Source of the DNA: Promethearchaeota archaeon
GTDB taxonomy: Archaea > Asgardarchaeota > Lokiarchaeia > Sigyniarchaeales > SOKP01
Reading direction: 5' to 3'
Assembly (NCBI GenBank): GCA_019058365.1
Contig: JAHPZE010000052.1
Coordinates: 1-13,808, forward strand
Length of the DNA: 13,808 bases
Shown: piece by piece, positions 3,849 through 13,808 of the stretch
How the letters are laid out: the number at the start of each line of letters is the position of its first letter
Numbering within the stretch: the first letter of the stretch is position 1
Notes under the pieces: generated by a model
The model's input: the letters and a program-made list of their open reading frames with translations, nothing else
What the model was told of the DNA's origin: nothing
The model's database searches: none
Translations under genes and position numbers: made by a program

Positions 3849-3984
3849 ATTATTAATTCAAAAAAATTTAATGTAATTAAAAACACTAAAAGGGAACCTA
3901 GTTAGGTGTTATTTACACTGAAATTAAAGGGAGTATAAAAAACTCTCCTCTTCATTATGGAATGGAAAAGAAATCAATAAACAT

Positions 3985-4010
3985 AAAAAAAAGATAAAAA
4001 ATTAAAAAAA
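3985..4010 (-). terminator. Oligo-T terminator(s) after the small-ORF cluster
   Basis: Three T6-T8 runs on the minus strand just after the stop at 4019. Confidence 0.55.
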
Positions 4011-4018
4011 TCATTACT

Positions 4019-4117
4019 CTATCGACCGCAATCCTTACAAATCGCTCTCGAATCCGTAAAATCGAGCTTTATCTCTTTACCGCATTTCATACAATTTATT
4101 CTTATTCTTTTTTTCAT
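4019..4117 (-). CDS. 32-aa zinc-ribbon microprotein (CxxCG-x13-CxxCG), not in the ORF track
   Basis: Manual translation MKKRIRINCMKCGKEIKLDFTDSRAICKDCGR*; GAGGG RBS upstream; T-runs downstream; paralog 160 bp upstream with synonymous differences. Confidence 0.8.
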   Translation of the reverse strand: MKKRIRINCMKCGKEIKLDFTDSRAICKDCGR

Positions 4118-4130
4118 AACAATCCCTCTT

Positions 4131-4274
4131 TTAATTAAAAATCAAAATTTCTTGTAGTTCTTGGGTTATGCTCAATTTGATTTTTTCGACACTTCCTACA
4201 AAGTGCCCTCGAGCCGTAAAATCCAGTTTTATTTCTTTACCGCATTTTCTACAGTTTATTATTATTTTAGCCAT
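4131..4274 (-). pseudogene. Frameshifted paralog of the zinc-ribbon microprotein
   Basis: Frame 0 gives MAKIIINCRKCGKEIKLDFTARGHFVGSVEKIKLSITQELQEILIFN*. One base is missing near 4213 relative to the paralog; the -1 frame continues SRALCRKCRKNQIEHNPRTTRNFDF* (stop 4135-4137), restoring the second CxxC. GTGA RBS upstream. Confidence 0.75.
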
Positions 4275-4314
4275 ATTTTTCACTTAATTTTTTAATAAAT
4301 AGGAAAAAATAGTT

Positions 4315-4413
4315 TTAATAGGAAATGTATCGTGAATGACAACTTCCTACATCATTCATAATAATTATTAATCTCGTCTTTTTCTTCATTCTTTTAACTC
4401 GCATTTTCACCAT
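4315..4413 (-). CDS. Putative 29-32 aa basic peptide, not in the ORF track
   Basis: (MVK)MRVKRMKKKTRLIIIMNDVGSCHSRYISY*; GGAGG at 4418-4414 lies 9 nt before the ATG at 4404; sits 20 bp after the previous stop on the same strand. Confidence 0.45.
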   Translation of the reverse strand: MVKMRVKRMKKKTRLIIIMNDVGSCHSRYISY

Positions 4414-4433
4414 CCTCCAATATCAAACTTTTA

Positions 4434-4670
4434 TTATCGATTATATGTCAGTCCCCTATAAACGATAGAGTCGACTTTATTTTTCACATTATTGATATTA
4501 ATTCTCCCCTGGTGTTGTTTAGCGTATTTTCTAAGTTTGAATTTAACTTTAATTCGCTCTGGTTCTTCCTTAACAATCTCTGCTTTTTCCTCAACTAAAG
4601 GAATAATTATAGAGAGACTTTCATTCTCATTCTCTAATTTTTCGAACACTTGAACCATTTTTTTTATCAC
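4434..4670 (-). CDS. Small hypothetical protein (74-78 aa; likely start ATG at 4658)
   Basis: Acidic N-half, basic C-half, double TAA stop; GTGA RBS before ATG 4658; BRE/TATA about 45-60 bp upstream. Confidence 0.65.
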   Translation of the reverse strand: MIKKMVQVFEKLENENESLSIIIPLVEEKAEIVKEEPERIKVKFKLRKYAKQHQGRININNVKNKVDSIVYRGLTYNR

Positions 4671-4711
4671 TTTTTTTTATTTTTTCTTAAGATCAATTAA
4701 ACTATCTATTC

Positions 4712-4725
4712 ATATATAGTTTCTT
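4712..4725 (-). promoter_or_regulatory. Putative BRE-TATA promoter for the small-ORF cluster
   Basis: Minus strand reads AAGAAA-CTATATAT. Confidence 0.5.
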
Positions 4726-4734
4726 GCTTCGTAC

Positions 4735-4768
4735 TTCACTCGGAGTTCATGCTTTACTCCGAAGTGAA
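4735..4768. promoter_or_regulatory. Palindromic putative operator between divergent promoters
   Basis: TTCACT-CGGAGT n9 ACTCCG-A-AGTGAA: 12-bp arms with one bulge, GC-rich in an AT-rich spacer. Confidence 0.65.
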
Positions 4769-4802
4769 AAGCTTAAAAAGTTAGAAGATAATAATATAAA
4801 TA
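4766..4802 (+). promoter_or_regulatory. Putative BRE-TATA element(s) for the wHTH-TPR operon
   Basis: GAAAAG-CTTAAAAA at 4766-4779 and TATAAATA at 4795-4802, about 33 nt before ATG 4836. Confidence 0.45.
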
Positions 4803-4835
4803 ACGAAATAAGATCTTATAGGACTGTATTTTATT

Positions 4836-7796
4836 ATGAGTAGATCAGACGGAGTTTTATATCCTCCTGGTGAGATATTAAACCCCATCATGGGGAAGAC
4901 CGATTTTGAATATGTTATATTATGGATGCTTAGTAATAATGACATTTGCGAGTGGTCAGATTTCACTGCTGAAATTAGTGAATCAACCTTATCTGGTAAT
5001 TTGAATAAATTGATGAGCAAGGGTTATATTAAAAAGCCTGAAAAAGGGAAATATGTAATTACATCACAAGGGCAAGATCGATACACTGAATTAGTTTATT
5101 TCAAAGAATCAGGAGAAACATTATTGTATCCACCAAAAGCAATACTCAAGACAAGGAATTATGATCATTGGATTTTATGGATGCTTTGTAATAATCCTTC
5201 ATGTAAATGGTCCGATTTTAAACAGACACCCTTATCAATCAACCAATCCTCCTTATCTAATACACTCAATTCATTGTTAAATGATGGTTTTATTGCTAGA
5301 GAAAATAAAGAATATGTTAAAACACAATTAGGTGAAATAGAGTATTTTAGAATATTAAAATCGTATGATTTAGACCGTCAAACTATATTAGAGCAAGAAA
5401 GTAAGAGAATTGAAGAAATTACAGAAAAAACTAGTATATTCTTTAAGAAATATAAAATAGAAGATGATGAGTTAAAATTTCGGTATCTGGATAACATTCT
5501 GAAATTGTCTTATTCTAAAATTGAATCGATGCTAAGAGAAGAGGAAGATTTTAATAAAGTTTTGTTGTACTTTTCGATTAATCATCCTGATCATTATCCC
5601 GAATTTATTTCAGTTGAAAAATTTTCAAAAAGATACAATATAGATATAAAAACATTAGATTTTCTTATAATGAGAATTGTAGATAATGAGTTTTTTGGTA
5701 TAAAATTTTTTAAATTGGAGGATGAACAAGGAGGAACTTATTATTTTCAAAAGAATGAAATCGTCGAAAAAATACTTAATGCAATTGTAGAAAAACATAT
5801 TACAAAATTCACATATTTAAATAAATTTCATGAAACTACAACAACAGACGTGGGATGGCTATTAGAAATAATTTTAAACGATATTTGCAGTAATTTATTC
5901 AATGAACATCTAAAACCCTCATTAAAATCATTTTTACCTGAATATATTAAATATTTAGCGTATAAAATTGAGACAGAGAAAAAATTAGTTGATATTGAAG
6001 CTAAATTAGCAGGATTTATATGGAGAAATGTCAATGAAGGATTCCAAGCTTTTGATCCTTCAGACATGCCTATAACTGGAGAAGAGGATGAATTATATTA
6101 TACAATGGATAGCAGCACTTTCAATGTATTAGATATTGTGGTTTTGTCTAAATTTTTTTATTTAAACACGAGTGAAGTTCAGGAGACCTATAGTTTGAAT
6201 AAAATAGATATTTATAATAAAATAATAAAAAATTTGTATAGAAATAAAGTTTCTAAAGCAAGGGAACTTTCGCAAAATATTACCACTAAAATAAAAACCA
6301 TAAATCAATTAATAATGAAGGATATTATAGCTACAGCAGAGAATAATTTTAATAATTCAATTAAAATTACTAATGGAATTATTGATAAATATCCAAATGA
6401 ATTTATTGGATACTTATTACAATCTATCACTTACTTATTGATGGATAATTATGAAAAATCTTTAGAGATCATTGAGAATGCACTAAAAGTAACACCTAAT
6501 GTTCTCTTAATCTGCCAAAAAGCACAGATTTTAATGAGAACATCTCAAGGAGCAAATGCATTAGATTATATTAATGACGCATTATCTCAGTATCCAGATA
6601 ATTCTTCATTATTAAAAACAAAATACTTAATTTATATTACTTATTGGATGGCACTAGTAAAGGATTATAATGAACCTCTTGATATTATAAATCAATTAAC
6701 CAATTTGAATCAAAAGGATCAAGAGATTTTACTCTTAAAAAGTCTTTATTATTGTCTGATCAATAAATATAAAGAAGCAAAGCGTTTAATAATAAATGAA
6801 ATTGATTTTAATAATTTTAAAAAAAATCCCAGAATTGATACAATTGCTTACTTTATTTTGGTTTATTCTTATTTAGCACGCGGTAAATTTGATAAAGCTT
6901 TAGAAATTGCAAATTTAGTTTTAACAATATATCCCGAACATCCTACTTCATTTTTTACAAAAGCCTTAGTAATTGGATACAATTTGATTTATAGATTTAC
7001 ATTTAAGGACCCAAATATTGATGCTTTTACTGAATTGATAACATCTACTCTCTCTTTTGAAAAAATTAATTATAATAAAACAATTTATCTTTTATTCCAA
7101 TCACAAGTTTTAAATGGGCTTGGAAAATACGATGAAAGCATTAATTCTATTGATACTGCTATTGAAATAGTCCCGACATTGAATTATCTATATGCTAGGA
7201 AGGCATACTTATTAATAACATCTAAGAAAGAATCTCAAGCATTAAGTTTAATTAATGAATTGTTAGAAAGTCGTCAACCATTGAAGTATAGCCTATTGAA
7301 ACAAAAATCTTATGTCCAAATCGTTCTAAAACAATACGATGAAGGATTGAAGACTGTTAATGAAGCAATTGAACTATATCCCCACGATAACGATTTTATC
7401 AATAACAAAGCCATGATCTTAGGCTATTTAGGAAGAAGAGAGGAAGCTATTGAAACTGCTGAACACCTAATAAGCCTTAATCCAAAATGTGGAAATTCTT
7501 ATGATACATATGGTGAAGTTTTAATGGCTCTTAAAGAATACGAAAAAGCTATTGAAAAATTTAAAGAAGCTTTAACCCTTGAACCCACTGGATGGTTTGC
7601 CTATGAAACTTGTTTAAAAATGGGACAATGTTTTAAGGAGCTTGGAAATATTGAAAAAGCTCTTGAATATTATGAGAAAGGAGAAAAATTGACAGAAAAG
7701 ATGCATCCTAGTTACAGGAATAATTATCTAGAGAAAACAGAGAAATTAATTTCTGAAGCTAAAATATTACTTAGAGAATCAAAAAACAGTGAATAA
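4836..7796 (+). CDS. Large regulator: two tandem N-terminal winged-helix domains plus a C-terminal TPR array
   Basis: Internal repeat LYPP...ILWMLxNN..CxWSDF...IxxSxLSxxLNxL...GxI...YVxTxxG occurs twice in the first ~175 aa; many TPR units in the C-half (e.g. YDTYGEVLMALKEYEKAIEKFKEALTLEP). Confidence 0.85.
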   Translation: MSRSDGVLYPPGEILNPIMGKTDFEYVILWMLSNNDICEWSDFTAEISESTLSGNLNKLMSKGYIKKPEKGKYVITSQGQDRYTELVYFKESGETLLYPPKAILKTRNYDHWILWMLCNNPSCKWSDFKQTPLSINQSSLSNTLNSLLNDGFIARENKEYVKTQLGEIEYFRILKSYDLDRQTILEQESKRIEEITEKTSIFFKKYKIEDDELKFRYLDNILKLSYSKIESMLREEEDFNKVLLYFSINHPDHYPEFISVEKFSKRYNIDIKTLDFLIMRIVDNEFFGIKFFKLEDEQGGTYYFQKNEIVEKILNAIVEKHITKFTYLNKFHETTTTDVGWLLEIILNDICSNLFNEHLKPSLKSFLPEYIKYLAYKIETEKKLVDIEAKLAGFIWRNVNEGFQAFDPSDMPITGEEDELYYTMDSSTFNVLDIVVLSKFFYLNTSEVQETYSLNKIDIYNKIIKNLYRNKVSKARELSQNITTKIKTINQLIMKDIIATAENNFNNSIKITNGIIDKYPNEFIGYLLQSITYLLMDNYEKSLEIIENALKVTPNVLLICQKAQILMRTSQGANALDYINDALSQYPDNSSLLKTKYLIYITYWMALVKDYNEPLDIINQLTNLNQKDQEILLLKSLYYCLINKYKEAKRLIINEIDFNNFKKNPRIDTIAYFILVYSYLARGKFDKALEIANLVLTIYPEHPTSFFTKALVIGYNLIYRFTFKDPNIDAFTELITSTLSFEKINYNKTIYLLFQSQVLNGLGKYDESINSIDTAIEIVPTLNYLYARKAYLLITSKKESQALSLINELLESRQPLKYSLLKQKSYVQIVLKQYDEGLKTVNEAIELYPHDNDFINNKAMILGYLGRREEAIETAEHLISLNPKCGNSYDTYGEVLMALKEYEKAIEKFKEALTLEPTGWFAYETCLKMGQCFKELGNIEKALEYYEKGEKLTEKMHPSYRNNYLEKTEKLISEAKILLRESKNSE

Positions 7797-7810
7797 TCCA
7801 AATAAAAAAT

Positions 7811-8482
7811 GTGATCTTAATGGATTACAGATTTGTAAAAGCATTTGAGTTTAATTTTAATTTTGGAACACTTTTATCAGTTGATTTCAGCACGTGTTCT
7901 GAAGCTTCAGACTTAATTAACCTTACTGAAGAAATATTTAATGAAATTAGAGATTGTATTAATGTTCGAGGCATTCCCAATCTAATATGGTTTAAAGGAA
8001 TAACTAACTCTGTAAATCCTTCAAATTTTACATTGATTACAAAAATGATTAGAGCGGTATATCCAAAACAAAAAATTGGTATTTATTTGAATTGTGGAAT
8101 TTTTCAAGATGAGGAGTTTCGAAACGTTTTTCATGGGTGCGACTTGGTTGCTATTAATCTCAATACCGTTGAGCACTTTCAATTTTCAAAAATTAATACT
8201 TGTCCTGAATTTATTAATTCTAAAGCCGTATTAGAAGGAATAATAGAATTTAGTAAAAATTTCAAGGGTAAATTAGGCATTTATACTTTGTTTTTAAAAG
8301 ATGTTAATGATAGCATTAAGAATGTAGAAAGATTAAAAGAATTCTTATTGCGCGTCATGCCAGATCATTATTCTGTTAGTAATTATATGTTAAATGGCTT
8401 TGAACCCGTTTCGACAGATTTTAAAGAAGGAGTTAAAGAAATCTTGAAAGATCTTCCTTTCAAGGTTATTTATATGTTCTAA
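7811..8482 (+). CDS. Degenerate radical-SAM-fold protein (COG0731/TYW1-like) lacking the CxxxCxxC motif; likely start ATG 7820
   Basis: IGIYLNCGIFQDEEFR...CDLVAINLNT...FSKIN...VLEGIIEFSKNFKGKL...LFLKDVNDS...MPD is colinear with the recalled COG0731 pattern (VAVLTNGSLL..EVR..ADLV.PSLDA..F..INRP..IIEGL..F...Y.G.I..E.ML..G.NDS...PD). Only one Cys remains at the cluster-motif position. Confidence 0.75.
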   Translation: MILMDYRFVKAFEFNFNFGTLLSVDFSTCSEASDLINLTEEIFNEIRDCINVRGIPNLIWFKGITNSVNPSNFTLITKMIRAVYPKQKIGIYLNCGIFQDEEFRNVFHGCDLVAINLNTVEHFQFSKINTCPEFINSKAVLEGIIEFSKNFKGKLGIYTLFLKDVNDSIKNVERLKEFLLRVMPDHYSVSNYMLNGFEPVSTDFKEGVKEILKDLPFKVIYMF

Positions 8483-8518: not shown

Positions 8519-8989
8519 TTAACATGGTTCAAATTTGAAACCACAACACTCACATAGATTTTCAAGATTTTTAATGTATTTTAACATTGAATTGTACCAT
8601 TTGTCCAATAATTTTTTTAACTGGATTTTAATTGTATCCATATTTTTAGCATTATACACATAAAGATATCCTTGTTTTTTAGAATCTATTAACCCTTTCG
8701 CATTAGTATATTCTTTCATTGATATCGAACTGCGTTTAACAAATTTTAACATAGATAGCACTTGAAGAGCTCTTTGAATTGAACTTCTGTCCATCTCTAA
8801 TGTGAGTGCTACTTCAGATGTCCTAACATCTTTATTCTTCAATAAATGACAAAATACTTTAGACTCAGTACTGTTTAAACCTAATATACATTTAAACAAT
8901 TGTTCACTGGAAAATTCCGCTTTATTATTTAAAATCTGGTCAATTTTCTCAAATTCTTTTAACTTTTTATTAATTACTTCCATTGGCAA
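8519..8989 (-). CDS. HTH transcriptional regulator (COG3355/TrmB-like) with Cys-rich C-terminus
   Basis: LFKCILGLNSTESKVF...TSEVALTLEMDRSSIQRALQVL...GYLYVY...LDKWY; tail CECCGFKFEPC. Confidence 0.85.
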   Translation of the reverse strand: MPMEVINKKLKEFEKIDQILNNKAEFSSEQLFKCILGLNSTESKVFCHLLKNKDVRTSEVALTLEMDRSSIQRALQVLSMLKFVKRSSISMKEYTNAKGLIDSKKQGYLYVYNAKNMDTIKIQLKKLLDKWYNSMLKYIKNLENLCECCGFKFEPC

Positions 8990-9043
8990 TCAATACAAAT
9001 TAATATAAAAAATTTAAAGAAAAAAGGAATTAATTTAATAATT

Positions 9044-9451
9044 TCATTTTTTTAATTTTTCTAATACTTTCTTCATTCCTTCATAGTTTATTGCTCCAAC
9101 AATTTGATTTATAACCTCGTCATTTTTAATAAATAAGGTTGTAGGAATTCCTGTTATTCCATACTTCATCGCTAAAGCGTTATTTTCATCAACATTAACC
9201 TTTATAAAAATAAAATCGCTTTGAAATTCTCCTTGAAGTTTCTTAAAAATTGGAGCAAAAAACATGCAAGGTCCACACCATACAGCCCAAAAATCTATAA
9301 TAATTATTTTATCAGGATAATCCTTCAATAATTTATTAAATTCTTCAGAAGAATGTATCTCTATTACATGTTCTGGCATCGTTTGATGTTTTAATAAAGT
9401 TTCAGCTTTTTTCATTCTTAACCTTTCTAGGTCCTTATCTGCTTCTTGCAT
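9044..9451 (-). CDS. trxA: Thioredoxin
   Basis: DFWAVWCGPC active site, KVNVDEN, YGITGIPT cis-Pro loop; archaeal-type N-terminal DxDLERLRxKK extension. Confidence 0.95.
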   Translation of the reverse strand: MQEADKDLERLRMKKAETLLKHQTMPEHVIEIHSSEEFNKLLKDYPDKIIIIDFWAVWCGPCMFFAPIFKKLQGEFQSDFIFIKVNVDENNALAMKYGITGIPTTLFIKNDEVINQIVGAINYEGMKKVLEKLKK

Positions 9452-11178: not shown

Positions 11179-12117
11179 TTATATTTTGAAATTGTCTTCT
11201 TCATAAATTTTTATTTGTTTTAGTCGTGAAGCTTTTCTTCGAGATGATACTGTAATTTGAAAATCTAAATCTTTTTTAAAGATATCAGCTCCTCTTGCTA
11301 TTTCCTTAGCAATATCTTCCATTATAGAATCTTCTTTAATAATAGCTCCGTTAAACATTGGTATTTCTGAATATTTTTCAATCAAATCCTCTGTTAATTC
11401 TTTTGGTAAAACATCAGATCTGTCTTTAAATGCCACAGTGATCCTTTCTTCTAATTTTATATAAATTTCCCTCTTACTAAATTGACAATCAACACATTTA
11501 GAACTTCGATTTTTAAAAATATTTAATATTATTAACCCAGTGATAAATTTGAAGTTTCTTTTTAAAATATCATTAATATCTCTATTATCAGGATCATTGA
11601 TGTATTGTTGAATATATTTCCCAGCATTAGTATATAATTTACAGAAAAATAAAGCCCGATGAAAATAGGCTGGAACTATGCAAAATATTCTCGTAAACCA
11701 GAAATGTGTGATTCCTATTGGTGGGTTTTCACGAAAAAAATAATAAGCAACTCTCCCATCTCTTTCTGTATGTAAAGTAGATTCTTTTTTAAGCATATTC
11801 AAATATGTTGAAGTCGTAGAGCGAGCAATCTCTTTAAAATATCTTTTATATTCTTTCTCTACTTCGCCTGTAGTAATTTTGTTCTTTCCTTCTAAGTAGT
11901 ATTGCAAAATTATTCCTAAAATACGGCTTTCGTGAAGGCGACCTGTTTTTATCTGTTGTTCTTCTGCTTCATCTTCTCTAATTTGATATAAATATGCAAT
12001 TTCTGGAGCATAATCTTGAATAACTTTATCTATAAATTTAAGTTCGGGATCTTCTTCTATCTCTACTGATTTAGTGCTTTCTATTATTAATTCTTCAATT
12101 TTAGATTTTTCAGACAA
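11179..12117 (-). CDS. Winged-helix regulator with a Cys-containing C-terminal domain
   Basis: ITTGEVEKEYKRYFKEIARSTTSTYLNMLKKESTLHTERDGRVAYYFF is a wHTH pattern; later RIFC, FFC and KCVDCQF; TTG start. Confidence 0.75.
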   Translation of the reverse strand: MSEKSKIEELIIESTKSVEIEEDPELKFIDKVIQDYAPEIAYLYQIREDEAEEQQIKTGRLHESRILGIILQYYLEGKNKITTGEVEKEYKRYFKEIARSTTSTYLNMLKKESTLHTERDGRVAYYFFRENPPIGITHFWFTRIFCIVPAYFHRALFFCKLYTNAGKYIQQYINDPDNRDINDILKRNFKFITGLIILNIFKNRSSKCVDCQFSKREIYIKLEERITVAFKDRSDVLPKELTEDLIEKYSEIPMFNGAIIKEDSIMEDIAKEIARGADIFKKDLDFQITVSSRRKASRLKQIKIYEEDNFKI

Positions 12118-12329
12118 TTTAAAAAACTCTTTTAGTTAATTATTTTATTTATTTATTAAATCCTGTTCTTAGGTGGGTTTTCATGTATTCTCTTCATTAA
12201 CAATAAAAAGAATTCCATTCTTTGTTATTATCTTGTAAAAACTTGATTTTCTATTAGCTAAATCTAATTAGATTTTCAATTCATAAATAGAGTTTTAATT
12301 CGCACTTGATGTGAATTATGAACTTTGAT

Positions 12330-12640
12330 TGAAGTCTGAAAATTAATTGTATATAAAGAGGAGACTAAGCTTTCTAAGATAATAAGAAAATTTGGGATTA
12401 CTAAAAAATAATTTAATGATTTTTACGTACAAGTTATTAATTTTTTTCCTGAATACAAAGAACTGGATCAGCAAAAACAGGTTGTCCAATTAATTTCTAA
12501 GTTCTCTTTGCATTTTAATTTAGGAATTCCATTCTATTATCAAGTAAAGAAAATTTTGATAAAATAAAGCTTATAAAACGAATTGATCTAATATAACTTA
12601 AATTATTATGTAATTTCAACTTATTTTATCTCTCTTTAGT
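12330..12640 (+). pseudogene. Decayed coding remnant, possibly of a Lokiarchaeia TFIIB/cyclin-fold-like gene
   Basis: Frame 12340-12567: KLIVYKEETKLSKIIRKFGITKK*FNDFYVQVINFFPEYKELDQQKQVVQLISKFSLHFNLGIPFYYQVKKILIK*; protein-like, one internal TAA at 12409, no start. Family from recollection only. Confidence 0.5.
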
Positions 12641-13518: not shown

Positions 13519-13756
13519 TTATGATAGTTAATAACAAGAAAAAATTGTAAAAAACCTTTCTATTTTACTACGTTATTTATATCATCAAATGAAAATACCA
13601 AACTCTTATTCTATTATGTTTTTAAAACAATTTCTCCCATTATCTAATTCTCGCTTTGAGTTTAATTTAAGGTGTTTTGGAATAGAATTGGACAGGTTTT
13701 TACAAAAAAGTCTGAAACTAATAATTGATATCTAAAGATCTTTCAGTTTAACAATA

Positions 13757-13808
13757 ACAGTACCAAAGGAAGTAGATCTCTAAATCCTATTGAACATTGA
13801 CTTTTTAT
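13757..13808. repeat. Right copy of the 52-bp terminal inverted repeat; probable IS/MITE terminus
   Basis: Exact reverse complement of 2-53; CAGTACCAAAGGAAG starts at 13758 after an AT-rich flank. Confidence 0.9.

Follow-up and report, generated by a model that had tools for sequence, protein, structure and literature searches.

The stretch analysed here (the window) comprises 13,808 nucleotides of a Promethearchaeota archaeon (GCA_019058365.1, contig JAHPZE010000052.1) and is the entire contig C38 of a 4.74-Mb genome (completeness 100, contamination 6.6) whose nearest relatives are Promethearchaeota (Lokiarchaeia) assemblies. It carries a rightward unit encoding a 986-aa regulator (4836-7796, +) and a cluster-less radical-SAM-fold protein (7811-8482, +), facing a conserved leftward series of micro-genes, A, B and then one or two zinc ribbons, across a spacer with promoters on both sides. 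The original prediction, made from the letters alone, had proposed a tandem winged helix-turn-helix (wHTH)/tetratricopeptide repeat (TPR) receptor and a dead radical-SAM protein opposite four peptide-like open reading frames (ORFs) and a palindromic operator; the layout held up, while the exact palindrome as operator and the four peptide-like ORFs did not. The module is a real, conserved and apparently undescribed gene switch: no paper describing the cassette was found in the literature, as judged partly by title and abstract. Viral copies were not found in IMG/VR with two search patterns, and the anti-phage defence profiles of PADLOC matched none of the four window proteins tested.

The regulator shows the tandem wHTH/TPR architecture expected of it, both in Pfam, which matched winged helices at aa 28-84 and 113-157 together with many TPRs, and in AlphaFold 2 models with mean predicted local distance difference test values (pLDDT) of 83.6 and 84.6. 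Together with fold matches, these place wHTH1 at aa ~9-90, wHTH2 at aa ~98-176 and a TPR solenoid at aa ~426-984. After wHTH2 the models contain a helical linker, a helical bundle and, ahead of the solenoid, a disordered linker, and they suggest, by secondary structure only, a probable third winged-helix-like (helix-helix-hairpin) unit at aa ~257-306. The two N-terminal domains resemble MarR/PadR-type folds (Z ~10, root-mean-square deviation ~2 Å over 67-77 aa; 2.0 Å over 70-77 aa for the regulators BldR, 3f3x, and AphA, 1yg2), which also use dyad operators, whereas here the winged helices stand in tandem in one chain fused to a TPR solenoid. Foldseek gave no match for aa 1-410 at E <= 0.001, with aa 180-410 barely covered by fold comparison, and ESM Atlas feature searches with aa 176-410 and with micro-protein A returned scores all under 0.9. 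For the solenoid, the best Foldseek matches (E ~1e-10) were the long TPR superhelices of APC/C (Cdc27/Cdc16), OGT/SPINDLY and TTC7B, a generic likeness at 11-17% identity to proteins with no DNA-binding module, for which we claim no orthology.

Homologs of the regulator occur in 34 of 36 same-genus genomes, with 2-10 matches per genome, and in 31 of 40 genomes of one Lokiarchaeia family, compared with two weak matches in the 160 other Asgard genomes searched. Members bearing TPRs span 630-1013 aa, with 1-10 paralogous receptors per genome; the source genome encodes four (986, 836, 640 and 637 aa). Around these homologs the tiny divergent genes, a radical-SAM gene without the cluster Cys and an operator at constant spacing are retained, as the prediction had proposed to check. 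A or B lies opposite at least 62 of the 92 regulators with enough upstream sequence, a pattern-based lower bound (30/40, 23/30 and 9/22 by length class). A profile of A was positive in 17 of 25 genomes of the regulator's family and in 0 of 125 others, and 17 of the 20 loci that it found carry a divergent regulator, including 5 of 5 judged new to the training set.

All four tiny leftward ORFs that had been noticed are present, preceded by Shine-Dalgarno-like motifs (GTGA/GGAGG/GAGGG) and oligo-A starts; two of them are zinc ribbons rather than peptides, and one of these is broken. Micro-protein A (4434-4658, -; 74 aa) begins 177 bp from the regulator start and has 55 homologs opposite regulators; among the genomes searched, it was found only in the regulator-bearing family (f1). 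These homologs (~60-95 aa) share an M-x-Q start, a charged middle and a conserved C-terminal ~30 aa with a clade-specific C-terminal block. Peptide B follows (4315-4404, -; 29 aa, or 32 aa from an ATG at 4413); across its homologs (20-29 aa) it combines a basic N-terminus, an I-I-I-x-N core whose Asn is invariant in 32 aligned rows, and an aromatic tail that is clade-specific on the constant core. The supposed 32-aa peptide is the zinc-ribbon micro-protein ZF1 (4019-4117, -), with two CxxC motifs and zinc-ribbon profile matches that are weak and below cut-off, and the supposed 47-aa ORF belongs to its tandem paralog ZF2 (4131-4274, -), in which a 1-nt deletion near 4213 breaks a CxxC..CxxC zinc ribbon that is intact and 46 aa long in relatives; the two form a direct repeat at 160-nt spacing. 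An assembly error is an unlikely source of this frameshift because a different sample from the study (X2, depth 5.5) yielded a contig that crosses the site without a gap and has the identical deletion; the probable source run has no cover there, and a relative's contig has the base. ZF1 and ZF2 are not the RNA polymerase subunit Rpo12/P (24 and 29 bits, where the cut-off is 89), which the genome encodes on contig C35. By description they resemble haloarchaeal one-domain zinc-finger micro-proteins (PMC6562870, PMC2253796), which have two CxxC(G) motifs in <70 aa and reported regulatory roles, and differ from them in being tandem paralogs inside a micro-gene operon.

Codon substitution patterns show that A, B and ZF1 are under purifying selection, in line with the conservation anticipated for the small ORFs: pooled pairwise ratios of nonsynonymous to synonymous change (dN/dS) were 0.16, 0.16 and 0.10, with a third-position excess, from pairs that are not independent and with synonymous differences (pS) near saturation for A. 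The five other frames gave 0.24-1.6 and mostly contained stops. The types of A and B follow regulator clades rather than genomes, such that paralogs within one genome keep different types, and distances between peptides correlate with those between regulators (Mantel r 0.57-0.78). For B, the partial correlation was 0.46 with the C-terminal TPR part and 0.10 with the wHTH part, a weak difference.

TATA-like boxes lie on both sides of the spacer, as first noted. Aligning 64 promoters on the leftward TATA revealed a shared order of elements: a predicted leftward B recognition element (BRE)-TATA for the micro-genes (CTATATAT; 4712-4726, -), conserved across all subfamilies; a dyad, GAACTTC-N4-GAAGTTC (4731-4748, with 2 mismatches in the window), at whose centre the symmetry of the profile peaks; a looser second dyad (4749-4767); and a predicted rightward BRE-TATA-like element for the regulator (4766-4779, +), with a second TATA-like run near 4796-4803. 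The palindrome first taken for the operator is an inverted repeat with 7-bp arms (4740-4762) that is private to the window, and we rejected it in favour of the offset dyad, since, among the loci fetched, only three copies of the window itself contain it exactly. The spacing between the conserved dyad and the leftward TATA is 11 bp in every length class and does not depend on which gene lies leftward. Because this geometry persists where the leftward gene encodes a wHTH/CxxC protein, small GTPases or an AbrB-like protein, the leftward promoter is the likely target. Archaeal activators typically bind sites beside the BRE, and from the dyad's position there we infer activation. It is highly probable that the tandem winged helices would bind the two dyads between the back-to-back BRE/TATA elements, control and probably activate the leftward transcript, and regulate their own promoter.

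The same geometry before unrelated genes also fits an arrangement in which the micro-proteins are outputs only: the regulator would sense a metabolite, metal or redox state, by itself or helped by the cluster-less barrel as a co-sensor, and activate any leftward gene, be it for micro-proteins, transporters or detoxification. TATA-plus-dyad matches in the source genome before an aldehyde-oxidoreductase-like gene and two major facilitator superfamily (MFS) genes (G000 C52:27141, C39:52866 and C22:22552) point the same way and may mark a regulon, although their scores come from a matrix that includes the TATA and were judged against shuffles, a poorly controlled comparison that understates the background; the dyad alone gave 221 genome matches against 223 in shuffles, so we claim no regulon. 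Glyoxalase, thioredoxin and hydrolase genes among the cassette neighbours would suit such a sensor, as would Cys96 and Cys131 of the dead barrel, which are conserved in its closer homologs. We nevertheless regard this arrangement as unlikely, as it leaves unexplained both the matching of A and B types to regulator clades across old duplications and the occurrence of A only in the regulator-bearing family.

The gene that follows the regulator encodes a protein of 220-223 aa; as predicted, the two form a rightward unit, with a 14-bp gap if the GTG start is used; in several homologs the gene begins at the ATG that corresponds to 7820. The intact 238-aa enzyme of a sister cassette is 37% identical to it over the full length (E 4e-51) with one 18-aa gap, a deletion that takes out the CxxxCxxC cluster motif; the GGE-type glutamate is also lost. 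Radical-SAM core homology is secured through this intact relative, which passes PF04055. Both motifs are deleted or replaced in 34 of 34 clade members, whose gene follows 28 of the 34 complete 980-1010-aa regulators, whereas intact CxxxCxxC enzymes directly follow ~846-aa regulators, sometimes in two copies. In a quick tree search, with Shimodaira-Hasegawa approximate likelihood-ratio (SH-aLRT) values as the only support measure, the 34 cluster-less proteins formed one group (SH-aLRT 99) nested among the intact cassette enzymes, with a 315-aa housekeeping paralog as outgroup. Since they form one clade inside intact enzymes, the tree suggests that the cluster loop was lost once and the dead protein retained thereafter. 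The 315-aa paralog (E 7e-28 to the intact cassette enzyme), which we take to be COG0731/UPF0026-like, is the likely source of the cassette enzymes; these are without its ~75-aa C-terminal part, and the window form is also without the cluster loop. As judged from gene content, the radical-SAM-fold gene is an accessory component, because many cassettes are without one; its product would be a non-catalytic partner or ligand-binding subunit, whose chemistry was lost once while the protein was kept.

An HTH-TPR regulator divergent from small genes recalls the peptide-signalling receptors of the RRNPP(A) systems, in particular divergent Rgg/SHP and PrgX/PrgQ (PMC10075063, PMC12700828), and the architectural analogy to Rgg/SHP drawn at the outset stands. 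Shared with these systems are an N-terminal DNA-binding domain with TPRs, an adjacent gene for 10-100 aa, several paralogous receptor-peptide sets per genome and clade-specific peptides. RRNPP membership was defined in PMC10075063 by a 10-100-aa propeptide, adjacency, TPRs, a receptor of 250-500 aa, and a SEC signal or SHP-like hydrophobic profile; the cassette has the first three, and its receptor length and missing secretion signal depart from the last two. No signal-like hydrophobic segment was found in A or B by a hydropathy proxy, the longest apolar run being <=5 residues and the best 12-residue hydropathy 1.96 for A (n=51) and 1.44 for B (n=31). The regulators, at 630-1010 aa, contain two or three winged helices and roughly 13 or more TPR units, compared with one HTH and 5-9 TPRs in RRNPP receptors, and the cassette further differs in its several classes of micro-genes, its radical-SAM-fold partner and its archaeal promoters. 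An RRNPP receptor was absent among the matches listed for the solenoid structure searches, all of them generic long TPRs, which excludes nothing. By its sequence features the cassette is not an RRNPP member, because the receptor is too long and the peptides have no signal sequences, though it may work like one.

Cell-to-cell signalling of this kind would require that leaderless B, or a piece of A, be exported, perhaps through an MFS transporter, and re-enter to bind the TPR groove, closing a positive feedback loop. The divergent layout, the clade-specific B tails on a constant core and the 1-10 paralogous receptors per genome are all consistent with it, and leaderless and PptAB-exported RRNPP peptides exist (PMC12700828). 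One MFS family lies in the locus of 25 of 70 regulators, against ~1% expected by our own estimate, the 4.74-Mb genome having 5 copies of it, at only 3 sites, and in ~836-aa cassettes the MFS gene is directly downstream of the micro-genes; the regulators behind this count come from related genomes and clustered cassettes and are not independent cases. Signalling is rather unlikely in our judgement, given also the missing basic-plus-hydrophobic signal profile (longest apolar run 5), a receptor far beyond 250-500 aa (PMC10075063), and the fact that neither a conserved peptidase nor an importer was seen in the loci inspected. A fuller version, in which subfamily-specific leaderless peptides, MFS export and a radical-SAM peptide enzyme turned dead co-receptor make up an independently evolved archaeal peptide communication, is doubtful to a like degree.

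The intact sister enzymes raise a further alternative, a cassette akin to those for ribosomally synthesized and post-translationally modified peptides (RiPPs), in which the enzyme would modify A or B and the MFS transporter export the product, the window being a degenerate version. The position of intact enzymes directly after ~846-aa regulators, sometimes in duplicate, the aromatic-rich peptide tails and the MFS linkage would fit. Yet radical-SAM RiPP systems require an active maturase, usually with a RiPP recognition element (RRE) or SPASM/twitch domain; the window protein has no cluster motif, and in the 238-aa sister enzyme the core domain alone was detected, with no SPASM or RRE match and, among PADLOC profiles, only weak generic viperin matches. 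The enzyme gene moreover runs in the direction of the regulator and not in that of the peptides, cassettes whose enzyme is dead or missing still have A and B, similar B tails accompany live and dead enzymes, and the dead protein remains 50-90% identical across most relatives, unlike a decaying gene. We consider this origin very unlikely.

We favour, with a confidence somewhat short of even, a divergent switch in which the regulator's own micro-proteins tune its TPR solenoid within the cell: cognate A and/or B, made in the cytoplasm, would bind the solenoid and adjust the regulator. In favour are the A or B genes opposite most regulators, the matching of their types to regulator clades and the lack of a signal-like segment in either product. 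TPR solenoids of APC/C and OGT hold peptides and tiny subunits, and a candidate acidic site is offered by two groove-facing TPR positions, D890 and E894, conserved in 100% and 95% of 88 complete members. As D-T-x-G is a common TPR pattern in general, this conservation is suggestive only. Several observations weigh against intracellular tuning. The 30 of 92 homologs that have no adjacent A or B still keep D890/E894, so the patch may be structural or bind something else. Family members of ~460 aa consist of the N-terminal module alone (L207-L210), and B-like peptides occur away from TPR regulators (L175, G000:C46:211195-211278; L198, L199 and L200; L173:11357-11428), where they face a 239-aa ArsR-like gene that has an MFS gene within 3 kb, or precede a bactofilin-like or an ATC-hydrolase-like gene. 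Correlated distances would arise in any case when linked genes are inherited together and when distances saturate, and the MFS enrichment near cassettes favours export. Co-folding of regulator aa 176-986 with protein A scored 0.00 with an uncertain partner fold, and we do not use it as evidence either way.

Downstream of ZF1, the T-rich terminator noted at first reading is present as an oligo-T tract (3976-4010, -), likely an archaeal terminator. A conserved 3' element follows (3926-3969, -), consisting of TTTTCCATTCC and then a GC-rich stem, GGGnGAG-N7-CTCnCCC, degenerate in the window; its 21 copies all lie after micro-genes and on their strand. In the alignment of the stem 89.9% of cells are paired, with one covarying pair. 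Because this single pair partly follows clades, it does not decide between an RNA hairpin and a DNA dyad. No Rfam family came near its gathering score for this element.

Micro-gene content varies further among relatives. Two or three different A-type genes can stand in tandem (L050:4418-5740, L030:4840-5784, L101, L106), and among these loci there are further classes of micro-gene, one for a basic peptide (22-27 aa, core CYVYYA) and one for a peptide rich in Cys (27-29 aa). At L006:5741-5821 an A start is naturally fused to a B core, apparently via a deletion, yielding one 27-aa peptide, and opposite ~634-aa regulators (L049, L053, L055, L062) A-like genes with the M-x-Q start encode a C-terminal hydrophobic, probably membrane-spanning segment. 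Some 630-830-aa regulators have small GTPase-like genes on their leftward, regulated side (L041, L065, L071, L050, L187). In seven relative loci a gene for a 312-aa wHTH/CxxC protein, found in the window at 11179-12117 (-), replaces the micro-genes and directly faces the regulator, sometimes followed by a zinc-ribbon gene; the weaker TATA-plus-dyad copy upstream of it (12283-12337) rests on synteny, because its score of 13.2 lies inside the shuffled range.

Also in the window, 8519-9451 (-) encodes thioredoxin and a TrmB-like HTH protein whose tail is rich in Cys; in most close relatives these genes converge on that of the dead enzyme. The two ends of the contig, each ~62 bases long (2-62, 13747-13808), are inverted copies of one another at 97% identity and may be a small repeat element at which the assembly broke on both sides. 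Synteny with loci L005 and L058 suggests that the right end of the window leads into contig C22, on which an MFS gene, the 3' element, a zinc ribbon, B, A and the 836-aa paralog lie. Locus L007, from a record titled Hermodarchaeota, encodes the same A protein as L112, a same-genus genome, and record titles naming other Asgard phyla therefore look unreliable.

Archaeal quorum sensing has been described as largely unexplored (PMC13464002), and an archaeal TPR-peptide regulator was not found in the literature searched. The cassette was found almost exclusively in one family known from metagenome assemblies. Its conservation, gene linkage, coding constraint, operator geometry and the history of the dead enzyme are shown, whereas expression, DNA binding, the sign of regulation and every contact between the proteins are inferred. 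For a direct test it offers a receptor with an operator, candidate peptides of two classes, matched sets of paralogs that can serve as specificity controls, and a radical-SAM partner in live and dead form. Should there be no signalling, it would still contribute a clear radical-SAM pseudoenzyme of single origin and conserved micro-protein families, likely missed by gene callers, in close relatives of eukaryotes.

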